Source: Candidatus Dormiibacterota bacterium (GTDB lineage Bacteria; Vulcanimicrobiota; Vulcanimicrobiia; Vulcanimicrobiales; SCRA01). From it: a stretch of DNA of 64,000 bases. Shown piece by piece: positions 2,263 through 63,327 of the stretch. Each line of letters begins with the position of its first letter. Position 1 is the first letter of the stretch. A model generated the notes under the pieces. It did not search any database. It had not been told where the DNA came from and worked only from the letters and a program-made list of their open reading frames with translations. The translations under genes were made by a program, and so were the position numbers. The stretch lies in contig DATLUD010000008.1 in NCBI GenBank assembly GCA_035533275.1, positions 123,198-187,197 on the forward strand. The letters are read 5' to 3'.

Positions 2263-2304
2263 TCGCCCCTTCGTAGGGAAGCGCTGACGACGTCCCAGCA
2301 TCGC

Positions 2305-2449
2305 CAAGCGGGCAGGGCACGTCTCTTGAGGGGCGCTCCGACATCGGCCCGGAGCCACGATGGCGAGAGGGCCGATGCGGCGCGAGCAGGAGCGGCACAT
2401 GGATGTGCCGCGACGAGCGTCCCCGAGGGAGGCGTGCCCTGCCCGCTTG
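2305..2449 (+). repeat. Structured intergenic repeat, copy 1 (candidate ncRNA / 3'-UTR element): 17-bp closing stem, inner stem and two hairpins
   Basis: Closing stem caagcgggcagggcacg (2305-2321) pairs perfectly with cgtgccctgcccgcttg (2433-2449). Hairpin catcggccc/gggccgatg lies at 2342-2377. Hairpin gcggcaca-UGGA-tgtgccgc lies at 2392-2411. The 100-nt core 2328-2427 is 87/100 identical to the reverse complement of 38506-38605. Confidence 0.8.
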
Positions 2450-2487
2450 ACTACGCCGACATGACGTAGACCAGCGATTCCGGTGGG

Positions 2488-4658: not shown

Positions 4659-6335
4659 CTACCGCGGCGCAAACCCCGCCGGGGGCCTCGACTCCTCTCC
4701 GGGTACGGCCACGGGGGTGATGCCCAGCGAGCCGCACGACATCGGCGCGGGGAAGGTGTCAACCACCCGGCTCGGGATCTCAGCCGCCGCGGCGGGAATC
4801 GGCGGCTTGGTGCCCGCCAGGCGCGCGGGGTCGAAGCCGCCGAGCAGGTCGGTGATGCGCGGGTTGGCGTCTCGCGGGCCTTCGGGAAGGTAGGGCTTCT
4901 CGTCGGGAAGCGAGGCAAGCGCAGGCAAGTCGAAGAGCTTTCCGAGGAACCGCGCGAACGACGCGTGGTCGCCCGGCGCGGAGACGGTCGCTCCCGATCT
5001 CGCGTACGGCGAGATCAGGATCAGCGGGACGCGCGGGCCGTCTCCGCAGGGATGGCCGTCGGGGCAACGCTCGAACTGCGGCGGCGGGACGTGATCGTAG
5101 AATCCCTCGGAGTCGTCCCAGGTGATCACGATCGCGGAGCTGCTCCAGTACGTGCTGTGGGCGATGGCGTCCACCACTTTGGCCACGAGCGCCTCGGAGA
5201 GCTGTGAGTCCGAGTACCCGGGATGGTCGTCGTCGCCGAGGAAATGCGCCTGTACCTGGGGGCTCCGGTTGGCCGGCTTCCATCCGAACGGATTGTGCGA
5301 GCCCCCCTTCACGAAGGTGACGCTGCGCGCGGGCAGCTCGCCGCGCTCCAGCACGGGGAAGATGTCCGTGAGATCGTGCACTCCGCTCCACAGCGGCTGA
5401 TTCTCGCGGATGTAGCCGAAGTACTGAGGCGAGTCGTGGTGCGAGACGTACCCCGGGTACTTCCCGGCGGCATTGGGTTTGAAGCCTTCCTCGTACCATC
5501 CCCACGGAATCGCCGGATGCCCCATGGCGGCCAACGCCTCCACGTCGTCCTTGACGTCACCGTCGTCGCGCTTGGCGCGCGTGGCGTTGCGGCCTTCGAG
5601 CGTGAGCAGGACGTTGGCGTACGTCTGATCGAGCTGCTTCTGCCGCGGCGCCTTCTCGTACGGCCCGAACGCCGGATCGAGATCGTTGACCACCGGCTCG
5701 CCCGGCCCTTGGGCGTCTTTGGCCACGCCCTCGTCGGGATGGCGCGCCAGCTGCGTCTGCCCCGTCTGCGCCGCGATCAGGTCCAGGTTGCCCGGCGTCG
5801 AGGGGCCGTACATCCCCTGGAAGATGTGGTCGTAGAGCGCGAACGTATGCGCATACTTCCAGAGGAACGGAATGGTGTCGCAGTCCTCGTGCGCCATCGT
5901 CAGCAAGCCGCGCCGCTGCGCCTGCGCGAAGGTCGCCCCCTGCGCGAGCATGCGAAACTCCTCCGCCGCGACGAACTGATCCATGTGGCCGTCGTTGACC
6001 TTCGTGATGAGGCTGGGCCGGCTGTGGTCGGCGTCGGCTTGATCGGGATCGGTGATGCGGAACGGCGTCACCCACTGCTCGCCGATCGGATCGTACTGCC
6101 GAAAGCCGTGCGTGCGCGCCGAGGGGTCGGCGAGATTGTCGGCGCCGGGAAACGTGCCGAAGTATGAGTCGAACGAACGATTCTCCTGATAGATCACGAA
6201 GACGTGCTTGACGCGCGCGCGCAGCTCGGCCAAGAGCCGCGCGTCGACCTGGGGCCGCTCCGCCGCCGGCGCCGGCTTCATCAGCCAGGGAGCGCAGATG
6301 GCCATCGCCATCGCGAAGGCAACGAGTCTCCGCAC
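4659..6335 (-). CDS. Secreted phosphoesterase family protein (phospholipase C / acid phosphatase AcpA-like, PF04185-type)
   Basis: ORF 4659..6335. GTG start with GAGGAGG 8 nt upstream. Signal peptide MRRLVAFAMAMAICAPWLMKPAPAAE. Family-typical VFVIYQENRSFDSYFGTFPGA motif. Confidence 0.85.
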   Translation of the reverse strand: MRRLVAFAMAMAICAPWLMKPAPAAERPQVDARLLAELRARVKHVFVIYQENRSFDSYFGTFPGADNLADPSARTHGFRQYDPIGEQWVTPFRITDPDQADADHSRPSLITKVNDGHMDQFVAAEEFRMLAQGATFAQAQRRGLLTMAHEDCDTIPFLWKYAHTFALYDHIFQGMYGPSTPGNLDLIAAQTGQTQLARHPDEGVAKDAQGPGEPVVNDLDPAFGPYEKAPRQKQLDQTYANVLLTLEGRNATRAKRDDGDVKDDVEALAAMGHPAIPWGWYEEGFKPNAAGKYPGYVSHHDSPQYFGYIRENQPLWSGVHDLTDIFPVLERGELPARSVTFVKGGSHNPFGWKPANRSPQVQAHFLGDDDHPGYSDSQLSEALVAKVVDAIAHSTYWSSSAIVITWDDSEGFYDHVPPPQFERCPDGHPCGDGPRVPLILISPYARSGATVSAPGDHASFARFLGKLFDLPALASLPDEKPYLPEGPRDANPRITDLLGGFDPARLAGTKPPIPAAAAEIPSRVVDTFPAPMSCGSLGITPVAVPGEESRPPAGFAPR

Positions 6336-9034: not shown

Positions 9035-10186
9035 CTATCCTTCTTCCGTATGCTGATCGTAGACGGTGCGCCCCGCGTTGCAGCGCAGATCTGGATCGAG
9101 CGCACGCTTGAGCATGCCGAAGATCCGCGATCCGCCCTCGTCGCGTGCCCGCCACCACCCGAAGCCGGCGCGCAGGTGCGCGCCGCCGAGGCGCAAGTGC
9201 ACGTGGCCGCCGCGCTCCGCGACGACGGCGGCGAAGCCGCCGAGCGCCTCGGAGTCCGCCTCCGGTCCGTAGACCTCGACGATTCCGATGCTGGGGCGCG
9301 CGATGACCTCGACGCCCGCCGGCAGCGCGTCGAGCAGCGCCAGGCTCGCCGCGCGCGGCACGCCGGCGCGCATCCATGCCCCGGCCCGCGAGGGGCGGGC
9401 CGCCTGCGCCTCGATCGCCCCGGCGTCGGTCTCATCGGCATGCAAACCGGCGGACGATGCCGCCGACGCGAGCTCGCGGCCGAGGCGGTCCACCACCTCG
9501 ATCTCGCCGTGGGCGAGGGCGCCGAGGTGCCACGCTTGGCCGCCGGTCGTGCCTGCCAGGTCGAGCGCCGCGAACGGAAGCTCCCGGCTGCGCAACGACG
9601 TCGCCGCCTCGCGCAGCGCCGCCGTGGGGCCCTCGATGCGCCATGCCCGCACGACGGGCGGAAGCGGTTGGACTTTGAACGTCGCTTCGACGAGCATCCC
9701 GAAGGCGCCCGCGCTGCCCACGTACGCCTTGGTGAGGTCGTAGCCGGCGACGTTCTTCACCACGTCGCCGCCGAAACGCGCGACGGAGCCGTTGGGCAGG
9801 GCCACGCGCACGCCGATGAGCGCGTCGCGCACGCCCCCGTAGCGCGCCCGCACGGGTCCGTTGTCGTTGGCGGCGATGACGCCGCCAACGCTGCCCGCCG
9901 GGTGCGGATCCAGCGGAAGCCACTGGCCGTGCTCGCCCAACGCGCGCTGGACTTCCTCCAGCGGCGTCCCGGCGCGCACGCAGACCGTGAGGTCGGCGGG
10001 CGTGTAACGGACGATGCCCGTAAGCGCCGACGACGAGATCGCCGTCCGCGCCTCGCGCGCGGGCGGGAACCACGTCTCGCGCGATCCGCCGCCGAGAATC
10101 GCCGCGTTGCCCGTGCTCGCGGCCTCGTGCAGGGCTTGCGCCGCCTCTTCGTATGTGACGGGACAGGAGGGTTCCATCACGCTCAT
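9035..10186 (-). CDS. glcE: Glycolate oxidase FAD-binding subunit
   Basis: Inner start MSVMEP of ORF 9035..10273. Its ATG overlaps the glcD stop (TGATG). FAD_binding_4-like VKNVAGYDL motif. Confidence 0.85.
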   Translation of the reverse strand: MSVMEPSCPVTYEEAAQALHEAASTGNAAILGGGSRETWFPPAREARTAISSSALTGIVRYTPADLTVCVRAGTPLEEVQRALGEHGQWLPLDPHPAGSVGGVIAANDNGPVRARYGGVRDALIGVRVALPNGSVARFGGDVVKNVAGYDLTKAYVGSAGAFGMLVEATFKVQPLPPVVRAWRIEGPTAALREAATSLRSRELPFAALDLAGTTGGQAWHLGALAHGEIEVVDRLGRELASAASSAGLHADETDAGAIEAQAARPSRAGAWMRAGVPRAASLALLDALPAGVEVIARPSIGIVEVYGPEADSEALGGFAAVVAERGGHVHLRLGGAHLRAGFGWWRARDEGGSRIFGMLKRALDPDLRCNAGRTVYDQHTEEG

Positions 10187-11857: not shown

Positions 11858-11889
11858 CAGGCGGGGGCTTCCCCCAAAGCCCCCGCCTG
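11858..11889 (-). terminator. Stem-loop terminator after the small gene 11900..12160
   Basis: Perfect 12-bp stem caggcgggggct / agcccccgcctg with an 8-nt loop, 11 nt after the stop. There is no U-tract, which may be usual in high-GC genomes. Confidence 0.5.
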
Positions 11890-11899
11890 GGAATGTGGG

Positions 11900-25174: not shown

Positions 25175-26070
25175 CGGTGCTGACAACGACGAACTCCTAC
25201 GACACCGCGCTGCGGCGGCTGGAGCTGCTGAGCGCCGAAGATGGTCCCGAGATTGGAGGCGGCTCGGGTACGCGCGCGCTGCTTCACGGCCGGCGGACGC
25301 GAGGCGCGCTCCTGCTCCTCCACGGCTTGGCTTCCGCGCCGCCGCAGTTCGCGCTGCTCGGCGAGCGCCTCCATGCGCGCGGCTGGAACGTGCTGATTCC
25401 GCGTCTTCCGCACCATGGCCACGCCGACCCGATGACGACGTCGCTGGCAGATCTCACGGCGGACGACCTGCGCGCGGCGGCCGCGGAGGCGCTCGCCATC
25501 ACCGCGGGCTTGGGCGAGCGGGTGACGGTAGCCGGCTTCTCGATGGGCGGCACGCTGAGCGCGTGGCTGGCGCACCATCGCCATGAGGTCGAGCATGCGG
25601 TCGCCATCTCGCCTTTCCTCGGCGTCTCCCTCCTTCCCGCGGGAACCGGCGGCCTGCTCGCGCACGCGCTCCGCCGCTTGCCCAACCGCTTTCTCTGGTG
25701 GGATCCCCTGCTGCGCGAGCGTCAGCGCCTCACCCCGCACGGCTATCCGCGCTTCGCGACGCGTGCGGCCGCGGCCGTGCTGACGCTGGCCGAGGCGACA
25801 CTGCGCGGCGCCCGCGCCGGGGCGCCGGCCGCGCGCCGCATCACGGTGGTCGCCCATCGGCGTGAGCCCGCCTGCAACACGCGCGACGCGCTCGCCCTCG
25901 TCGAGGCCTGGCGGCGTAACCCGAACGCCGACGTGCGTGTTGAGATGCTGACCGGCCTGCCGTCGCTCCACGACATCATCGAGCCGGGGCGCCCCCAGAC
26001 GCCGGTCTCGCTCGTCTACCCGCGGCTCATCGAGATCATCGACGCGCCGCACGGCAAGGAAGCACGATGA
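25171..26070 (+). CDS. Alpha/beta hydrolase (esterase/lipase-type)
   Basis: Inner ATG (MTVLTTTNSYD) of ORF 25078..26070; the annotated N-terminal extension has low GC3. Nucleophile elbow GFSMGG. HGLASAP oxyanion region. Confidence 0.8.
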   Translation: MTVLTTTNSYDTALRRLELLSAEDGPEIGGGSGTRALLHGRRTRGALLLLHGLASAPPQFALLGERLHARGWNVLIPRLPHHGHADPMTTSLADLTADDLRAAAAEALAITAGLGERVTVAGFSMGGTLSAWLAHHRHEVEHAVAISPFLGVSLLPAGTGGLLAHALRRLPNRFLWWDPLLRERQRLTPHGYPRFATRAAAAVLTLAEATLRGARAGAPAARRITVVAHRREPACNTRDALALVEAWRRNPNADVRVEMLTGLPSLHDIIEPGRPQTPVSLVYPRLIEIIDAPHGKEAR

Positions 26071-26642
26071 TTCGCTACGCGCACACGCTAGACTCGCCGA
26101 TCGGGCCGCTGGTCGTTGTGGTCGGCCCCGACGGCGCGCTCACGGAGATCGAGTTCGGGCGCACGCACCACAACCGGCTCTTCGAGCGGATGGAGCGCGC
26201 GCAGATCGGGCTGGAGCAGGATCCGCGCCGCACCGATCCGGTAGCGCGCCAGCTCGACGAGTACTTCGCCGGGGTGCGCCGCGCGTTCGATCTCGCGCTC
26301 GCTCCGGAGGGCACGCCCTTTCAACTGCGCGTCTGGGAGGAGCTGCGCCGCATCCCATACGGCGTCACCACCACCTACGGCAAGATCGCCGAGCGCATCG
26401 GCAAGCCCACCGCCTCGCGCGCCGTTGGCCTGGCCAACGGCTCGAATCCGATCCCCATCGTCGTGCCCTGCCACCGCGTGATCGGCAGCAGCGGGGCGCT
26501 GACGGGCTTCGGCGGCGGCATCGACGTCAAGGCGGCGCTGCTGGCGCTCGAGAGCGGCCAGCTGGCCTGGCTCGACCTGGTCGCTCCCGCCGCGAAGAGT
26601 GAAGGAATCGCCGATCTACGTTCAGATCAAGGGATGACGTAG
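26067..26642 (+). CDS. ogt: Methylated-DNA--protein-cysteine methyltransferase
   Basis: ORF 26067..26642. ATGA overlap with the hydrolase. Active-site PCHRV. TTYGKIAERIG DNA-binding region. Confidence 0.9.
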   Translation: MIRYAHTLDSPIGPLVVVVGPDGALTEIEFGRTHHNRLFERMERAQIGLEQDPRRTDPVARQLDEYFAGVRRAFDLALAPEGTPFQLRVWEELRRIPYGVTTTYGKIAERIGKPTASRAVGLANGSNPIPIVVPCHRVIGSSGALTGFGGGIDVKAALLALESGQLAWLDLVAPAAKSEGIADLRSDQGMT

Positions 26643-26653
26643 AGCAGAGATTC

Positions 26654-27520
26654 CTAGCGCAAGCTGAGGATGTCGGCGAGATTGGCCTTGGGATCGAGCA
26701 CGGGCTCGATCTTCCCCTCGCCCGAGGTCATGAGCGACGAGACGCCTGGGCCGTGGCCGGCGACCGCGGAGGCGCCGTGGACCACGACGCCCACGGAGAT
26801 CGCGCCCGTCTTGTAGATGCGCCCATAGGAATGCTCGGCGTTCTGGATCGCCACGATGTCGCCCAGCCGGATGTCGGCGAGGCCGTACTCCTCGACGATG
26901 TCGCGGGAGAACATCTGAATGTCGTAATCGCCGCGGTAGACGTTGTCGCGGCCGATGCCGCTGCCCATGACCGCCGCCGGCACGATCTTGGCCACGCGCA
27001 CCCGCAGGCGATCGCCGGCCATCTCGCAGCCAAGCGCGTCGAAGAGGTCGGGGTCCAGGTTGAAGAGACGCACCGCGGGAGCGTCCGGCAGCGCGAGGCC
27101 CTGACCCACGCTGCGCACCGCGATCTTGTCCCCGACGGCGAGCTTCTCGAGCACGTCCTGGGGAAAGTCAATCATCACGTGCTCGATGCCGCCGTGCTTT
27201 CCGGTCACCACGCCGGTCGCGCCCTTGGCCTCACCGCTCATCACCGTGGCCCGGTTGCCCACGCACGAGAGCAGGCAGAAGCCGATGTTCTCCTTCTCGT
27301 CCTTCGCGCGCGCGCTCACCGCCGGCTCCACATGATCGGCTACCCAGCCGAGCGCCGGGTCGCCGACGCGGACGTTGAGGTTGATGCTTCCCATGCCGGG
27401 CACGATCACCGCACGGCCGTCGGCGGTAATGTCGTATGGGTTGGGGCCGAAGGCGGCAGGGGCGACCTCCCCGCTCACGGCGACGGTCAGCAGACGGTCT
27501 CGGTTCGTGCGCAAACCCAT
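26654..27520 (-). CDS. DUF4438 family protein (288 aa)
   Basis: Inner ATG (MGLRTNRDRLL) of ORF 26654..27790. The upstream extension is antisense to queD. The pattern TN..LL..V.G...P...PY.I..DG...PG.G.I..NVRVGD...W..DHVEP matches my recollection of DUF4438. Confidence 0.7.
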   Translation of the reverse strand: MGLRTNRDRLLTVAVSGEVAPAAFGPNPYDITADGRAVIVPGMGSINLNVRVGDPALGWVADHVEPAVSARAKDEKENIGFCLLSCVGNRATVMSGEAKGATGVVTGKHGGIEHVMIDFPQDVLEKLAVGDKIAVRSVGQGLALPDAPAVRLFNLDPDLFDALGCEMAGDRLRVRVAKIVPAAVMGSGIGRDNVYRGDYDIQMFSRDIVEEYGLADIRLGDIVAIQNAEHSYGRIYKTGAISVGVVVHGASAVAGHGPGVSSLMTSGEGKIEPVLDPKANLADILSLR

Positions 27521-37143: not shown

Positions 37144-38450
37144 GCACATTCGCCGAGCGCCGCGCCGAGTTCCGCAAGCGGCTGGGCGGCGGGGTCGTCG
37201 TGATCCCGGCCGCGCCGCATCAGACGCGCAGCAACGACACGCAGTACGAGTACCGCCAGTCGAGCGACCTTCACTACCTGACGGCCTGGCCCGAGCCCGA
37301 TGCGGTGCTCGTGATGACGACGCTCCCCGAGCCGCGCACGGTGCTCTTCGTGCTCCCGCTCGACCGCACGATGGAGATCTGGAACGGCCGGCGGGTCGGC
37401 GTCGATGGCGCCAAGGAGCGCTACGGGGCCGACGAGGCCTACCCCATCGGCGAGCTCGCCCCACGCCTTCCCGACCTGCTGGCCGGACACGAGCGACTCT
37501 GGTACACGCTCGGCGAGAGCGAGCCCATGGACCGCACCGTGCTCGACGCCGTGCGCGCGGTACGCCGCCAGGCCCGCAAGGGCGTGGTCGCGCCCATCGA
37601 GTTCCATGACCCGCGCGTTGTCCTGGCCGAGATGCGCCTCATCAAGACGCCCGACGAGATCGAGATCATGCGCCGCGCGGCGGCGATCACGCGCGACGGC
37701 TTTCTGGCGGGCATGCGCAACACGCGTCCCGGCTTCGGTGAGTACGCCGTCGAGGCACGCATGGAGTACGAGTACTTGGCGCGCGGAGCACAGGCCGTGG
37801 CCTATCCCTCCATCTGCGGCGCGGGGCACAACGCGACGATCCTCCACTACAATACCAACCGCGAGGAGTTGCGCGACGGCACGCTCCTGCTGGTCGACTC
37901 CGCCTGCGAGCTGGACGTCTACGCCACCGACGTCACGCGCACGTGGCCGGTGAACGGCAAGTACACCGCCGAGCAGCGCGCCATCTACGAGATCGTGCTC
38001 CGTGCCCAGAAGGCCGGCATCGAGGCCGTGGCGCCGGGCGCCTCGTTCCGCGCGTATCACAACGCCGCGGTGCGGGTGATCACCGAGGGCTTGGTGGATC
38101 TGGGCCTGCTCAAGGGCGACGTCGACGCGCTGATCGAGCGGGAGAAGTTCACCGACTTCTTCATGCACAACACGGGCCATTGGCTGGGCCTCGACGTCCA
38201 CGACGTTGGCGCCTACAAGATCGCGGGGGAGTGGCGCAAGCTCGAGCCCGGCATGGCGCTGACGGTGGAGCCGGGGATCTACATCCACGGCGACCTCGAC
38301 GTCCCCGAGCGGTGGAAGGGCATCGGCGTGCGCATCGAGGACGACGTGCTGGTCACGCAGACCGGGCGGGAGAACCTGACCGAGTCGATCCCGCGCGAGA
38401 TCGCCGAGATCGAGGCGATGGTCGGCGCCGACGTCTCCGCGCGCGCGTAG
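37140..38450 (+). CDS. pepP: Xaa-Pro aminopeptidase (M24B)
   Basis: Inner ATG (MSTFAERRAEF) of ORF 37029..38450. ATGA overlap with the M28 gene. HYxxN, DVTRTWP, HNTGHWLGLDVHD and EPG metal ligand motifs. Confidence 0.9.
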   Translation: MSTFAERRAEFRKRLGGGVVVIPAAPHQTRSNDTQYEYRQSSDLHYLTAWPEPDAVLVMTTLPEPRTVLFVLPLDRTMEIWNGRRVGVDGAKERYGADEAYPIGELAPRLPDLLAGHERLWYTLGESEPMDRTVLDAVRAVRRQARKGVVAPIEFHDPRVVLAEMRLIKTPDEIEIMRRAAAITRDGFLAGMRNTRPGFGEYAVEARMEYEYLARGAQAVAYPSICGAGHNATILHYNTNREELRDGTLLLVDSACELDVYATDVTRTWPVNGKYTAEQRAIYEIVLRAQKAGIEAVAPGASFRAYHNAAVRVITEGLVDLGLLKGDVDALIEREKFTDFFMHNTGHWLGLDVHDVGAYKIAGEWRKLEPGMALTVEPGIYIHGDLDVPERWKGIGVRIEDDVLVTQTGRENLTESIPREIAEIEAMVGADVSARA

Positions 38451-38487
38451 GCGACTCTCCGATCTTTGTCATCCCGGCTCTGCTACG

Positions 38488-38624
38488 CGGACGGGACGAG
38501 CCTCTCTCGGGGCCACTCGTCGGCGCACATCCCGGTGCGCCTCCTGTTCGCGCCGCATCGGCCCTCTCGACATCATATCTCCGGGCCGATGTCGGAGCGC
38601 CCCTCGTGAGGCTCGTCCCGTCCG
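38488..38624 (-). repeat. Structured intergenic repeat, copy 2 (inverted relative to copy 1)
   Basis: Closing stem cggacgggacgagcctc (38488-38504) pairs perfectly with gaggctcgtcccgtccg (38608-38624). The core 38506-38605, reverse-complemented, is 87/100 identical to 2328-2427 with compensatory changes in the stems. Confidence 0.8.
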
Positions 38625-38673
38625 TGCAGCGCCTTGGTCTCGTGTAGATCGGCGAGGCCCGAGCGCGCTCGAT

Positions 38674-61288: not shown

Positions 61289-61312
61289 AGAGGGGGCCGC
61301 GCGGCCCCCTCT
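61289..61312 (-). terminator. Perfect GC-rich palindrome downstream of pstA (possibly a bidirectional terminator)
   Basis: agagggggcc-gcgc-ggccccctct, a 10-bp stem with a 4-nt loop, 35 nt after the pstA stop at 61347. Confidence 0.55.
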
Positions 61313-62234: not shown

Positions 62235-63271
62235 GCCGACCTCTCCAGGTTGCCCGCCAAGCGCAGGATCAGCCGCGCCCCCACGTTGACCACCAGCGTG
62301 ATCGCGAAGAGCACGAGCGCGATCTCCGCGAGCGACCGCACGGCCAGCAGGGTGGAGTCGGTCAGCGCGCTGTCCAGCTGGGAGACGATGACCGCGGCCA
62401 TCGTGTTGATGGGCTGGTAGATGTTCTGCGGCAACTGGTTCATCGCGGCGCCGCTCACCATCAGCACCGCCATCGTCTCGCCCAGCGCCCGCCCGAGCGC
62501 GAGCATCGCCGCGCCGAATATTCCCGCCCGCGCCGCCGGCAGCACCGCCTGCGTGACGGCCTGCCAAGAGGTCCCGCCCAGCGCGATGCTCGCCTCGTAG
62601 ATCGAGCTCGGCACCGCGCTCATCACGTCGCGCATGGTCGCCGCCATGATCGGCAGGATCATGATCGCCAGGACGACGCCCGAGGCGAGCAGACCGTTCC
62701 CCGTCCCGATGCTGCCGCCCAAAAAGGGAACCCAGCCCAGGTGCGCGCTCAACCATGGCCCCAGCGCGTTGCCGATCCACGGCACCAGCACCACGATGCC
62801 CCAGAGCCCGAAGACCACCGACGGCACGCCGGCCATCAGCTCGACCAGCGTGTTCACCGGCGTCTTGAGCGAGGCCGGCACGCGGAAGACCATGGCGACC
62901 GCCGCCAGCAGCGCCACCGGCGTGGCCACCAGCATCGCGACGAACGAGCTCATCAGCGTGCCGTACAAGAAGACGACGACGCCGAAGGACGCACCCGGCA
63001 TCCCGGCGATGCCGTTACGCGCGACGGGCCCCCCGCCGTACTGATTGCCCATGTTCCACGTGAGCGTCGTCAGAAAGTCCAGCCCGTTGAAGCGGATTGC
63101 CGGAAATGCGTAGACCGCGAGGAAGATCGCGATCAGAAATACCAATGCGGCCGTCACGGCCGCCATCGCTCCGGTGCCCCATTGCAGGGCGACGTCACCC
63201 GGCCGGTGCCGCGAGGCGGCACCGGCCGTCGGTGGAGACGTCGCGCGATCGACCTGCGTCTGCGTCGTCAC
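62231..63271 (-). CDS. pstC: Phosphate ABC transporter permease PstC
   Basis: ORF 62231..63271. GTG start with GGAGAG 8 nt upstream. EAA-loop YEASIALGGTSWQ. Confidence 0.9.
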   Translation of the reverse strand: MTTQTQVDRATSPPTAGAASRHRPGDVALQWGTGAMAAVTAALVFLIAIFLAVYAFPAIRFNGLDFLTTLTWNMGNQYGGGPVARNGIAGMPGASFGVVVFLYGTLMSSFVAMLVATPVALLAAVAMVFRVPASLKTPVNTLVELMAGVPSVVFGLWGIVVLVPWIGNALGPWLSAHLGWVPFLGGSIGTGNGLLASGVVLAIMILPIMAATMRDVMSAVPSSIYEASIALGGTSWQAVTQAVLPAARAGIFGAAMLALGRALGETMAVLMVSGAAMNQLPQNIYQPINTMAAVIVSQLDSALTDSTLLAVRSLAEIALVLFAITLVVNVGARLILRLAGNLERSA

Positions 63272-63292: not shown

Positions 63293-63327
63293 GCGGCGGA
63301 GCCGAAGACCCTCTTCGGCTCCGCCGC
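63293..63327 (-). promoter_or_regulatory. Strong intercistronic stem-loop between pstS and pstC
   Basis: gcggcggagccgaag / cttcggctccgccgc, a perfect 15-bp stem with a 5-nt loop, 14 nt after the pstS stop. Confidence 0.6.

Follow-up and report, generated by a model that had tools for sequence, protein, structure and literature searches.

The window analysed here (64,000 nucleotides of a contig from an uncultured bacterium) contains two copies of a long intergenic palindrome, A and B, which belong to a small family of palindromic, non-coding repeats found between genes and restricted to one lineage, that of an Eremiobacterota-like metagenome-assembled genome (MAG) and its close relatives. The family is undescribed and belongs to a kind already known, the lineage-specific structured intergenic repeat; its unusual feature is a conserved apical three-way junction, borne on a stalk of free sequence inside a GTAG-tagged palindrome. 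No description of this family was found in the literature on Eremiobacterota repeats or RNA motifs. With moderate confidence, we interpret the repeat as a new non-autonomous element resembling repetitive extragenic palindromes (REPs) and REP doublets forming hairpins (REPINs), i.e. a single-strand hairpin repeat with a conserved apical domain, whose mobilisation by an enzyme of the HUH/Y1 type we infer. This reading is favoured because of the terminal tag, its adjacency to stop codons, the inverted pairs, the free orientation of copies, their gain and loss at orthologous sites and the homogenisation of their cores.

Copy A (2273-2481, plus strand), delimited by arm complementarity, homology and folding, is flanked by genes for a LarA-type racemase and a periplasmic binding protein. 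The neighbours of copy B (38451-38659, minus strand) are pepP and an NAD-epimerase-like gene, and its sense-3' end directly abuts the TAG stop codon of pepP (38448-38450). Both are built of outer arms, a stalk and a core, and copy A begins with a GTAG tag evident from the sequence (2273-2276, plus strand). The inner units, i.e. the elements without outer arms, span 2305-2449 (plus strand) in A and 38488-38624 (minus strand) in B. Within them, the conserved cores occupy 2328-2427 (plus strand; supported by folding and covariation counts) and 38506-38605 (minus strand), and score 160 and 156.7 bits, respectively, with the covariance model. An earlier, sequence-only reading of this DNA had aligned the core of A with the reverse complement of that of B and counted 87 identities in 100 positions. 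We recomputed the same figure, and the 13 differences lie where they had been placed, namely in hairpin P4, in the extension of P3, in the inner stem and, for the rest, in loops, a bulge or the junction. They include a double swap of CG/CG to GC/GC in P4 (2393-94 and 2409-10), changes at 2355, 2356 and 2363 in the P3 extension, and a G-C to G-U change at 2418. A 27-mer and a 22-mer common to A and B each occur twice in the window, against a chance expectation of 0.00-0.03.

The stalk, P1, is perfectly self-complementary over 17 bp in both copies, as had been claimed (2305-2321/2433-2449 in A, 38608-38624/38488-38504 in B). In A, whose arms span 2305-2327 and 2428-2449 (plus strand), the 17 perfect pairs are followed by an extension containing G.U pairs; in B, the 5' arm is CGGACGGGACGAGCCTC (38608-38624) and the 3' arm GAGGCTCGTCCCGTCCG (38488-38504), both on the minus strand. 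The further claim that the two closing stems are unrelated in sequence stands only in part. Stalk sequence is mostly free, but the innermost ~5 bp (CCUC/GAGG) are conserved, and some copies share stalk sequence, as do A and the copy on contig L021 (identity 0.79). Folded as RNA and compared with shuffles, copy A reached a minimum free energy of -114.9 kcal/mol (z = -11.7) and copy B -106.3 kcal/mol (z = -8.5). The two independent predictions agree on one architecture, in line with the three-way junction proposed from sequence: a long stalk P1, then a 4x4 internal loop with tandem G.A beside P2, then a three-way junction with P3 and P4, where P3 comprises an internal loop and a short apical extension. 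In the plus-strand core of copy A, these parts follow one another as the tandem G.A internal loop, P2 (GGGGCGCUC/GAGCGUCCCC), P3 with its internal loop and apical extension, the junction strand CAGGAG, and the P4 hairpin GCGGCACA-UGGA-UGUGCCGC.

A known RNA family was ruled out. None of the 4227 models of Rfam 15 matched the window at gathering thresholds, in agreement with the earlier reading, which could assign the element to no family known to it, and a permissive scan of the locus returned only long-hairpin noise (for example MIR820, 21.7 bits against a threshold of 196 bits), with RsmV at 12 bits against a threshold of 100. Hammerhead, twister and hepatitis delta virus-like ribozymes as well as the K-turn were rejected, by inspection only, as the junction strands do not fit, and none had an Rfam match. 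A small protein was rejected too: the 34-codon frame shared by A and B is interrupted in other copies, whose P3 and P4 loops contain 1-nt indels. The window has neither tRNA nor tmRNA genes.

Further copies were sought with a 19-mer from the core, scanned over JGI metagenomes. This yielded 52 loci (designated by L numbers), 11 of which contained the whole element, all from three sister samples (Ga0307372-4) that also hold the window organism; the remaining loci were chance coding matches. The window organism itself is represented in two ENA assemblies (ERZ27256799/801) and in JGI samples 3300031670/71. After de-duplication, the distinct members were L007, L014, L017, L020/L042, L035 and L053, together with L021, from which P4 is deleted, and L022, which is truncated. 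The L022 copy (4807-4869, identical to L038) lies between a GAF/PAS adenylate cyclase gene and rpsI, and breaks off behind P3, exactly where the cyclase gene has its stop codon. A covariance model (R1), of the kind suggested by the sequence-only reading, was then built and, together with nhmmer, did find two diverged copies in inverted orientation beside known ones (L042:2378-2521 and L053:1208-1353). In these, P3 and P4 have been wholly rewritten and still pair (for example CAUCGGCCC/GGGCCGAUG into GUCCGCGC/GCGCGGAC), while the loop motifs GGAG, CGAGAG, CAGGAG and CGACGAG are kept. Altogether, at least 11 distinct copies were recovered, two in the window and nine on other contigs from the sister samples; these copies may come from more than one genome, and only L053 shares the NCBI MAG label of the window. 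Four more, much diverged copies were found in the mnmE-mnmG gap of three relatives with ~84% MnmG identity (two in L071, one each in L072 and L073), and their independent folds gave the same architecture.

Taken over these members, the unit measures 145-205 nt and consists of an always paired stalk of 17-24 bp with free sequence, an apical three-way junction of ~100 nt whose purine-rich loops are conserved, and an optional outer inverted repeat (GGAATCGCCGATCTACGTCA...TGACGTAGATCGGCGATTCC) with GTAG or CTAG on one side. Outside the three sister samples, the 19-mer had no true match in the JGI metagenomes. Nor did two 19-mer patterns have a true match in IMG/VR, where the three matches of the core 19-mer were due to chance and lacked the fold; as PLSDB likewise gave no blastn match, a plasmid or phage origin was discarded. 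Among GTDB species representatives, a 25-base two-block pattern hit only by chance, inside a Castellaniella coding sequence. In ~190 kb of relatives' loci searched with either covariance model, the core was detected only at mnmE-mnmG, and ~9 kb to the left of the window (L069) contained no further copy. The best protein matches were in uncultured Eremiobacterota-like MAGs. At NCBI, the proteins of the source MAG are labelled 'Candidatus Dormibacteraeota bacterium', and nearly all taxon-named PepP, LarA and MnmG homologues listed carry the label Eremiobacteraeota, Baltobacteraceae or Vulcanimicrobiaceae; a taxonomic mislabel of the source MAG is possible.

The fold is conserved far beyond the two window copies. 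Among the 11 copies of the window lineage, 97.2% of the cells were standard pairs, and changes on both sides were counted in 28 of 53 pairs, compared with 7-11 when the partners were slid. The covariation score was 0.477 as against 0.09 or less in controls, and 0/500 shuffles reached the observed values. With the four copies from three related genomes added, 36 of 53 pairs covaried and 95.4% of cells paired, in an alignment that was fitted to the model and therefore leans towards structure. Since covariation is this strong relative to slid and shuffled controls, the fold must have been selected, and the earlier claim of selection on secondary structure is upheld. Under DNA parameters, both strands still adopt the architecture. 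The impression that the 5' arm of the stalk is always G-rich was dropped after counting.

Covariation alone is nevertheless no proof of an RNA gene, because compensatory changes are also documented in REPIN hairpins, which are thought to act as single-stranded DNA (PMC3116915). The palindrome is also longer than the earlier reading had it. In copy A, the palindrome reaches ~30 nt past the stalk on each side (39-nt arms at 2287-2325/2429-2467, 77% complementary), and the element hence fills nearly the whole stop-to-stop gap, as it does in B (A, 2273-2481; B, 38451-38659); the entire gap of copy A folds at -137 kcal/mol (z = -8.2). L017, L021 and L007 have outer arms homologous to the ones in copy A (GGAAGCGCTG... 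and ...CAGCGATTCC). Six of 11 copies (A, B, L007, L017, L021 and L035) carry the outer inverted repeat GGAATC[G/T]C[C/G]GATCTACGTCA..., and in L014, L042 and L053 the terminal repeats (GGAATC[G/T]C[C/G]GATC...) are degenerate or absent.

The [G/C]TAG tag was always found at one end only, the position at which REPs carry GTAG or CGTC. It reads GTAG in A, B, L007 and L014 (in the last at the stalk foot, without outer arms) and CTAG, a variant of the canonical REP tag, in L017, L021, L035 and a solo hairpin of the window. This solo hairpin (26601-26656, no strand assigned) consists of the outer arms of the repeat family without stalk or core, and is located between convergent MGMT-like and DUF4438 genes. 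The MGMT-like gene (26067-26642) runs 13 codons into the hairpin and stops at an internal TAG, and the stop codon of the DUF4438 gene (CTA, 26654-26656) abuts the other end. A neighbouring gene has its TAG stop within or next to the tag in six instances (B, L007, L017, L021, L035 and the solo hairpin); this is a hallmark of GTAG-type REPs, in which the tag often provides the stop codon of the flanking open reading frame (ORF) (PMC3733652). A TA target-site duplication of the IS630 type was ruled out, as TA/TAG occurs at one end only.

Comparison of orthologous sites revealed differences in both presence and length, as used to recognise miniature inverted-repeat transposable elements (MITEs). 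The gap between pepP and the epimerase gene measures 223 nt in the window, compared with 40 nt in L002 and 9 nt in L005, where synteny is intact on both sides and the element is absent, with no hairpin at all. The filled and empty sites differ by a simple insertion next to the TAG, without duplication. As the relatives lack any hairpin there, stalk, outer arms and core were gained or lost together. The gap between the LarA-type and binding-protein genes is 225 nt in the window, 114 and 76 nt in two relatives (L061 and L065) and 0 nt in L064. L061 and L065 possess a coreless short form, composed of the outer arms and the outer stalk CGCCAAGAGGC...GCCTCTTGGCAACGATGG with a loop containing ACTCTTGA, and the 3' tails of these short forms align with those of L021, L017 and copy A. 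Because the retained ACTCTTGA matches the motif at the 5' boundary of the core (CCUCNCGA), alignment suggests that the short form would be a deletion derivative of the full element.

Cores and stalks have had different histories. Among copies of the window lineage, core identity was 0.83-0.97 and stalk identity 0.29-0.79, the latter close to the baseline expected of GC-rich stems with nothing but the inner CCUC/GAGG in common; in two comparisons (A with L014 and L017 with L014), cores 95-96% identical sit on stalks ~40% identical. In the mnmE-mnmG gap (L071:9596-9732 and 9820-9954, L072:9758-9892, L073:9747-9872, L053:1208-1533), the stalk of L073 resembles that of the second L071 copy (L071b), which occupies the same position, while its core is of the type of the first (L071a). 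From this identity gap and the mixed L073 copy, it can be deduced that, within a genome, cores are homogenised, exchanged or converted between copies independently of the stalk, which stays with its locus. A simple recent burst of the whole unit as a MITE was rejected, given near-baseline stalk identity alongside cores that are 95% identical.

The majority of copies are located between convergent genes or shortly after a stop codon. The element occurs in either orientation, not tied to that of flanking genes: the L007 copy runs antisense to the genes on both sides, the genes around the L042 pair diverge, and those around the mnmE-mnmG copies are arranged in tandem. Inverted pairs were found in L042 and L053/L071. 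Among ~20 neighbouring genes scanned, which were ordinary, the only nuclease-like one was a small HNH endonuclease gene (L007:5898-6599) beside the L007 copy; it terminates precisely where the tagged end of this copy lies.

The sequence-only reading had set the element apart from REPs and MITEs. This distinction is not supported, as the element is a dispersed repeat with at least 11 copies and a [G/C]TAG-tagged outer repeat, and it is gained and lost at orthologous sites. Of the features that would make it an ordinary REP or MITE, many copies were indeed found, most of them with similar termini, whereas target-site duplications were not seen, nor, in the sequence scanned, a REP-associated tyrosine transposase (RAYT) or other transposase. 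The structural argument was right and has gained considerable support, but the conclusion that the element is therefore an RNA gene and not a REP or MITE does not follow from it.

With GTAG REPs and REPINs, the element shares its extragenic palindromic nature, occurrence in either orientation and sometimes in inverted pairs, the [G/C]TAG at one end that often supplies a TAG stop (PMC3733652), compensatory changes that preserve its hairpins (PMC3116915), and vertical persistence over long periods with homogeneity inside a genome. It is larger, however (145-205 nt, compared with 20-40 nt for REPs and ~70-100 nt for REPINs), and apparently modest in copy number, with about 11 copies recovered, unlike the high-copy REPs and REPINs. 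A second group of comparable repeats is formed by bcr1 of the Bacillus cereus group (~155 bp) and the enterobacterial repeats of the ERIC and RU-1 type, which are likewise dispersed in intergenic regions at ~130-170 nt, unevenly distributed among relatives, present in long and short forms with internal indels, and predicted to fold into branched structures or long hairpins with compensatory changes (PMC3184786). In bcr1, which is MITE-like, base-pair compensatory changes are documented along with transcription (PMC3184786). It differs from our element in its 5-bp terminal direct repeats and known transcription; no target duplication was seen in ours. Furthermore, the element has no sequence similarity to bcr1 or ERIC and resides in a different host phylum.

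As a model to account for these observations, we propose that the element would act as a folded single strand, and that it would be propagated and kept at the DNA level as a non-autonomous unit of the REP/REPIN type. A trans-encoded, single-strand-specific HUH/Y1 enzyme (RAYT-like) would probably recognise the tag together with the fold. Copies surviving just past stop codons would furnish transcripts with a very stable 3' hairpin, which could block both read-through and 3' exonucleases; the long retention of some sites may be explained in this way.

Several observations weigh against this model. REPs and REPINs are mobilised by RAYT/TnpA-REP Y1 HUH transposases, whose genes typically lie between such repeats, and none was found in the element flanks or in the sequence scanned: Pfam detected no RAYT, IS200-like or other transposase among ~20 element-flanking ORFs, and tblastn with a single approximate consensus query found no IS200-like tnpA in ~720 kb, which belong only partly to this clade. 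No insertion or excision event was observed directly, and no direct repeat marking a target-site duplication was present at the ends of any copy. REPINs combine conserved ends with a free spacer, whereas here it is the apex that is conserved and the stem that is free. Four genomes, at ~84% MnmG identity, have kept their copies at mnmE-mnmG, which suggests host-level or long-term constraint and not a recent selfish burst. Finally, G.U cells outnumber A.C cells on the sense strand (26 vs 8), the sense strand folds ~10 kcal/mol better on average than the antisense strand (14/15 copies), and unpaired motifs are kept across genomes, namely the tandem G.A beside P2, GGA in the P3 and P4 loops, and ACAnGGAUGU in the loop of P4. 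Such conserved unpaired motifs and sense-strand preference would be expected of a functional RNA.

A genuine structured non-coding RNA, with the core as the mature molecule and the copies as a multi-copy family of small RNA (sRNA) genes, is accordingly the first alternative to be considered, and we regard it as possible, if rather unlikely. The stalk would then serve as a processing stalk (for example a substrate of RNase III, at least 20 bp), freeing the core from read-through transcripts or from those of its own promoter, and the GGA loops would bind, for example, a regulator of the CsrA/Rsm type. This would account for strong covariation in all helices, for one architecture emerging from independent folds of 15 copies in four genomes, for the strand preference and G.U excess just described, and for the long retention at mnmE-mnmG. 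The element is non-coding, since the loop indels in P3 and P4 break any frame. Each copy holds 3-6 GGA motifs, of which 2-5 are mostly unpaired and lie chiefly in loops, nearly all copies have ACA(N)GGAUGU in the P4 loop, and P4 is exactly where the sub-threshold RsmV match (12 bits) lies. The loop of P4, CACA(U)GGAUGUG, also appears to resemble the CsrA consensus from in vitro selection (SELEX), RUACARGGAUGU. However, crude scans detected no sigma-70-like promoter in or beside the copies, and no U-tract or intrinsic terminator was present at A, B or L071, with no T runs following the 3' arm of A or B. Several conserved copies (L007 and the second, b, copies at mnmE-mnmG) are antisense to both neighbours, so read-through cannot express them; the core is missing in close relatives at two of three orthologous sites; and the element is embedded in a GTAG-tagged REP-like palindrome. 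No csrA was detected in the ~720 kb scanned, which is a small sample.

As a narrower version of the RNA reading, the core could be a trans-acting protein sponge or an RNA of a ribonucleoprotein, released from the stalk by RNase III-type processing and forming a self-contained, mobile 'sRNA cassette' that has dispersed across an uncultured phylum inside REP-like palindromes. The released core would then display candidate CsrA-type GGA hairpins, with the motif exposed in the loops of P3, in that of P4 (ACAnGGAUGU) and in the junction strand CAGGAG. We consider this unlikely. The element does resemble the Csr/Rsm sponge sRNAs (CsrB, RsmX/Y/Z/V) in having several GGA motifs in hairpin loops and linkers, and its P4 loop appears similar to a high-affinity CsrA site, but it differs from them in that no promoter or terminator of its own was detected, copies are dispersed in both orientations, and presence varies among relatives. 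Motifs of the Solibacter-1, Methylobacterium-1 and Rhizobiales-1 type, reportedly described by Weinberg et al. in 2010 as lineage-specific multicopy structured RNAs and included in Rfam, share with it a GC-rich, multicopy, lineage-restricted and intergenic character, support by covariation and a possible repeat nature. Unlike them, the element is larger, with a long stalk and a three-way junction, lies inside a REP-like outer palindrome, and has no Rfam match.

The independent behaviour of cores and stalks could also mean that the ~110-nt core is distinct from the rest, a small mobile unit or a gene-conversion tract, and landed in the apical loops of GC-rich hairpins already present between genes. 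Such hairpins would be terminator-like stems or outer palindromes of the REP-like type, and the stalk would come from the host instead of co-evolving with the element. The nearly identical cores of A, L014 and L017 on dissimilar stalks agree with this, as does the L073 copy, which joins the stalk of one copy to the core type of another. Potential recipients exist as well, in the form of empty perfect hairpins of 13-17 bp in intergenic gaps of the genome, the solo outer hairpin and the coreless hairpin at the orthologous LarA site of relatives. We find this explanation quite doubtful all the same. The ACTCTTGA kept in L061 and L065 matches CCUCNCGA and so points to deletion of a core, not to an unoccupied site; at the pepP site, the absence of any hairpin indicates that all parts came or went together; and no known mechanism or enzyme for loop-targeted insertion was identified.

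Least probable of all, and in fact very unlikely, is a purely host-beneficial and immobile cis element, acting as a bidirectional transcription barrier or a stabiliser of mRNA 3' ends between close-packed genes. Most copies do sit between convergent genes or just past a stop codon, the stability of the stems is extreme whichever strand is folded, and at mnmE-mnmG the copies are bounded by the mnmE stop on one side and a conserved TGnTACAAT box on the other. However, a stable hairpin alone would suffice for this role, which leaves the three-way junction and loop motifs unexplained, along with the shared GTAG-tagged arms, core homogenisation and orthologous gain and loss, and there is no U-tract and the L042 pair lies in a divergent promoter region. 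The TGnTACAAT box is promoter-like and situated just upstream of mnmG, and the mnmE-mnmG gap, which contains one or two copies in four related genomes, belongs to the origin-proximal region dnaA-dnaN...parAB.

Some further features of the window were recorded. The LarA-like gene beside copy A (346-2262) is annotated with 483 aa in the source assemblies but with 424 aa in every close relative, and the start codon of the longer version has probably been placed too far upstream. Long perfect GC-rich hairpins without U-tracts (stems of 10-16 bp, loops of 3-6 nt) occur at 63199-63231, 63293-63327, 11858-11890 and 61289-61312, in short intergenic gaps such as that between pstS and pstC, and may be the usual 3'-end structures of this genome. 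A perfect 17-nt inverted repeat (GATCATGGCCGATCGCG, 39816-39832/39972-39988), with its arms 139 nt apart inside a long ORF, appears to be unrelated to the element.

If the element is indeed a REP/REPIN-like unit, the uncultured phylum Eremiobacterota (WPS-2) would contribute a new architecture to the bacterial small repeats, a GTAG-tagged palindrome that has its conserved part, a three-way junction, at the apex. The element would also be a clean case in which strong covariation by itself does not separate an RNA gene from a mobile element acting as single-stranded DNA, and thus a practical warning for covariation-based discovery of non-coding RNAs. Should it prove to be an RNA instead, it would be of a new structured and multicopy type, in which a processing stalk is built in and the loops are candidate sites for protein binding. 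Under either reading, covariance models R1 and R2 provide a ready probe for mapping the family and for finding the enzyme that mobilises it.

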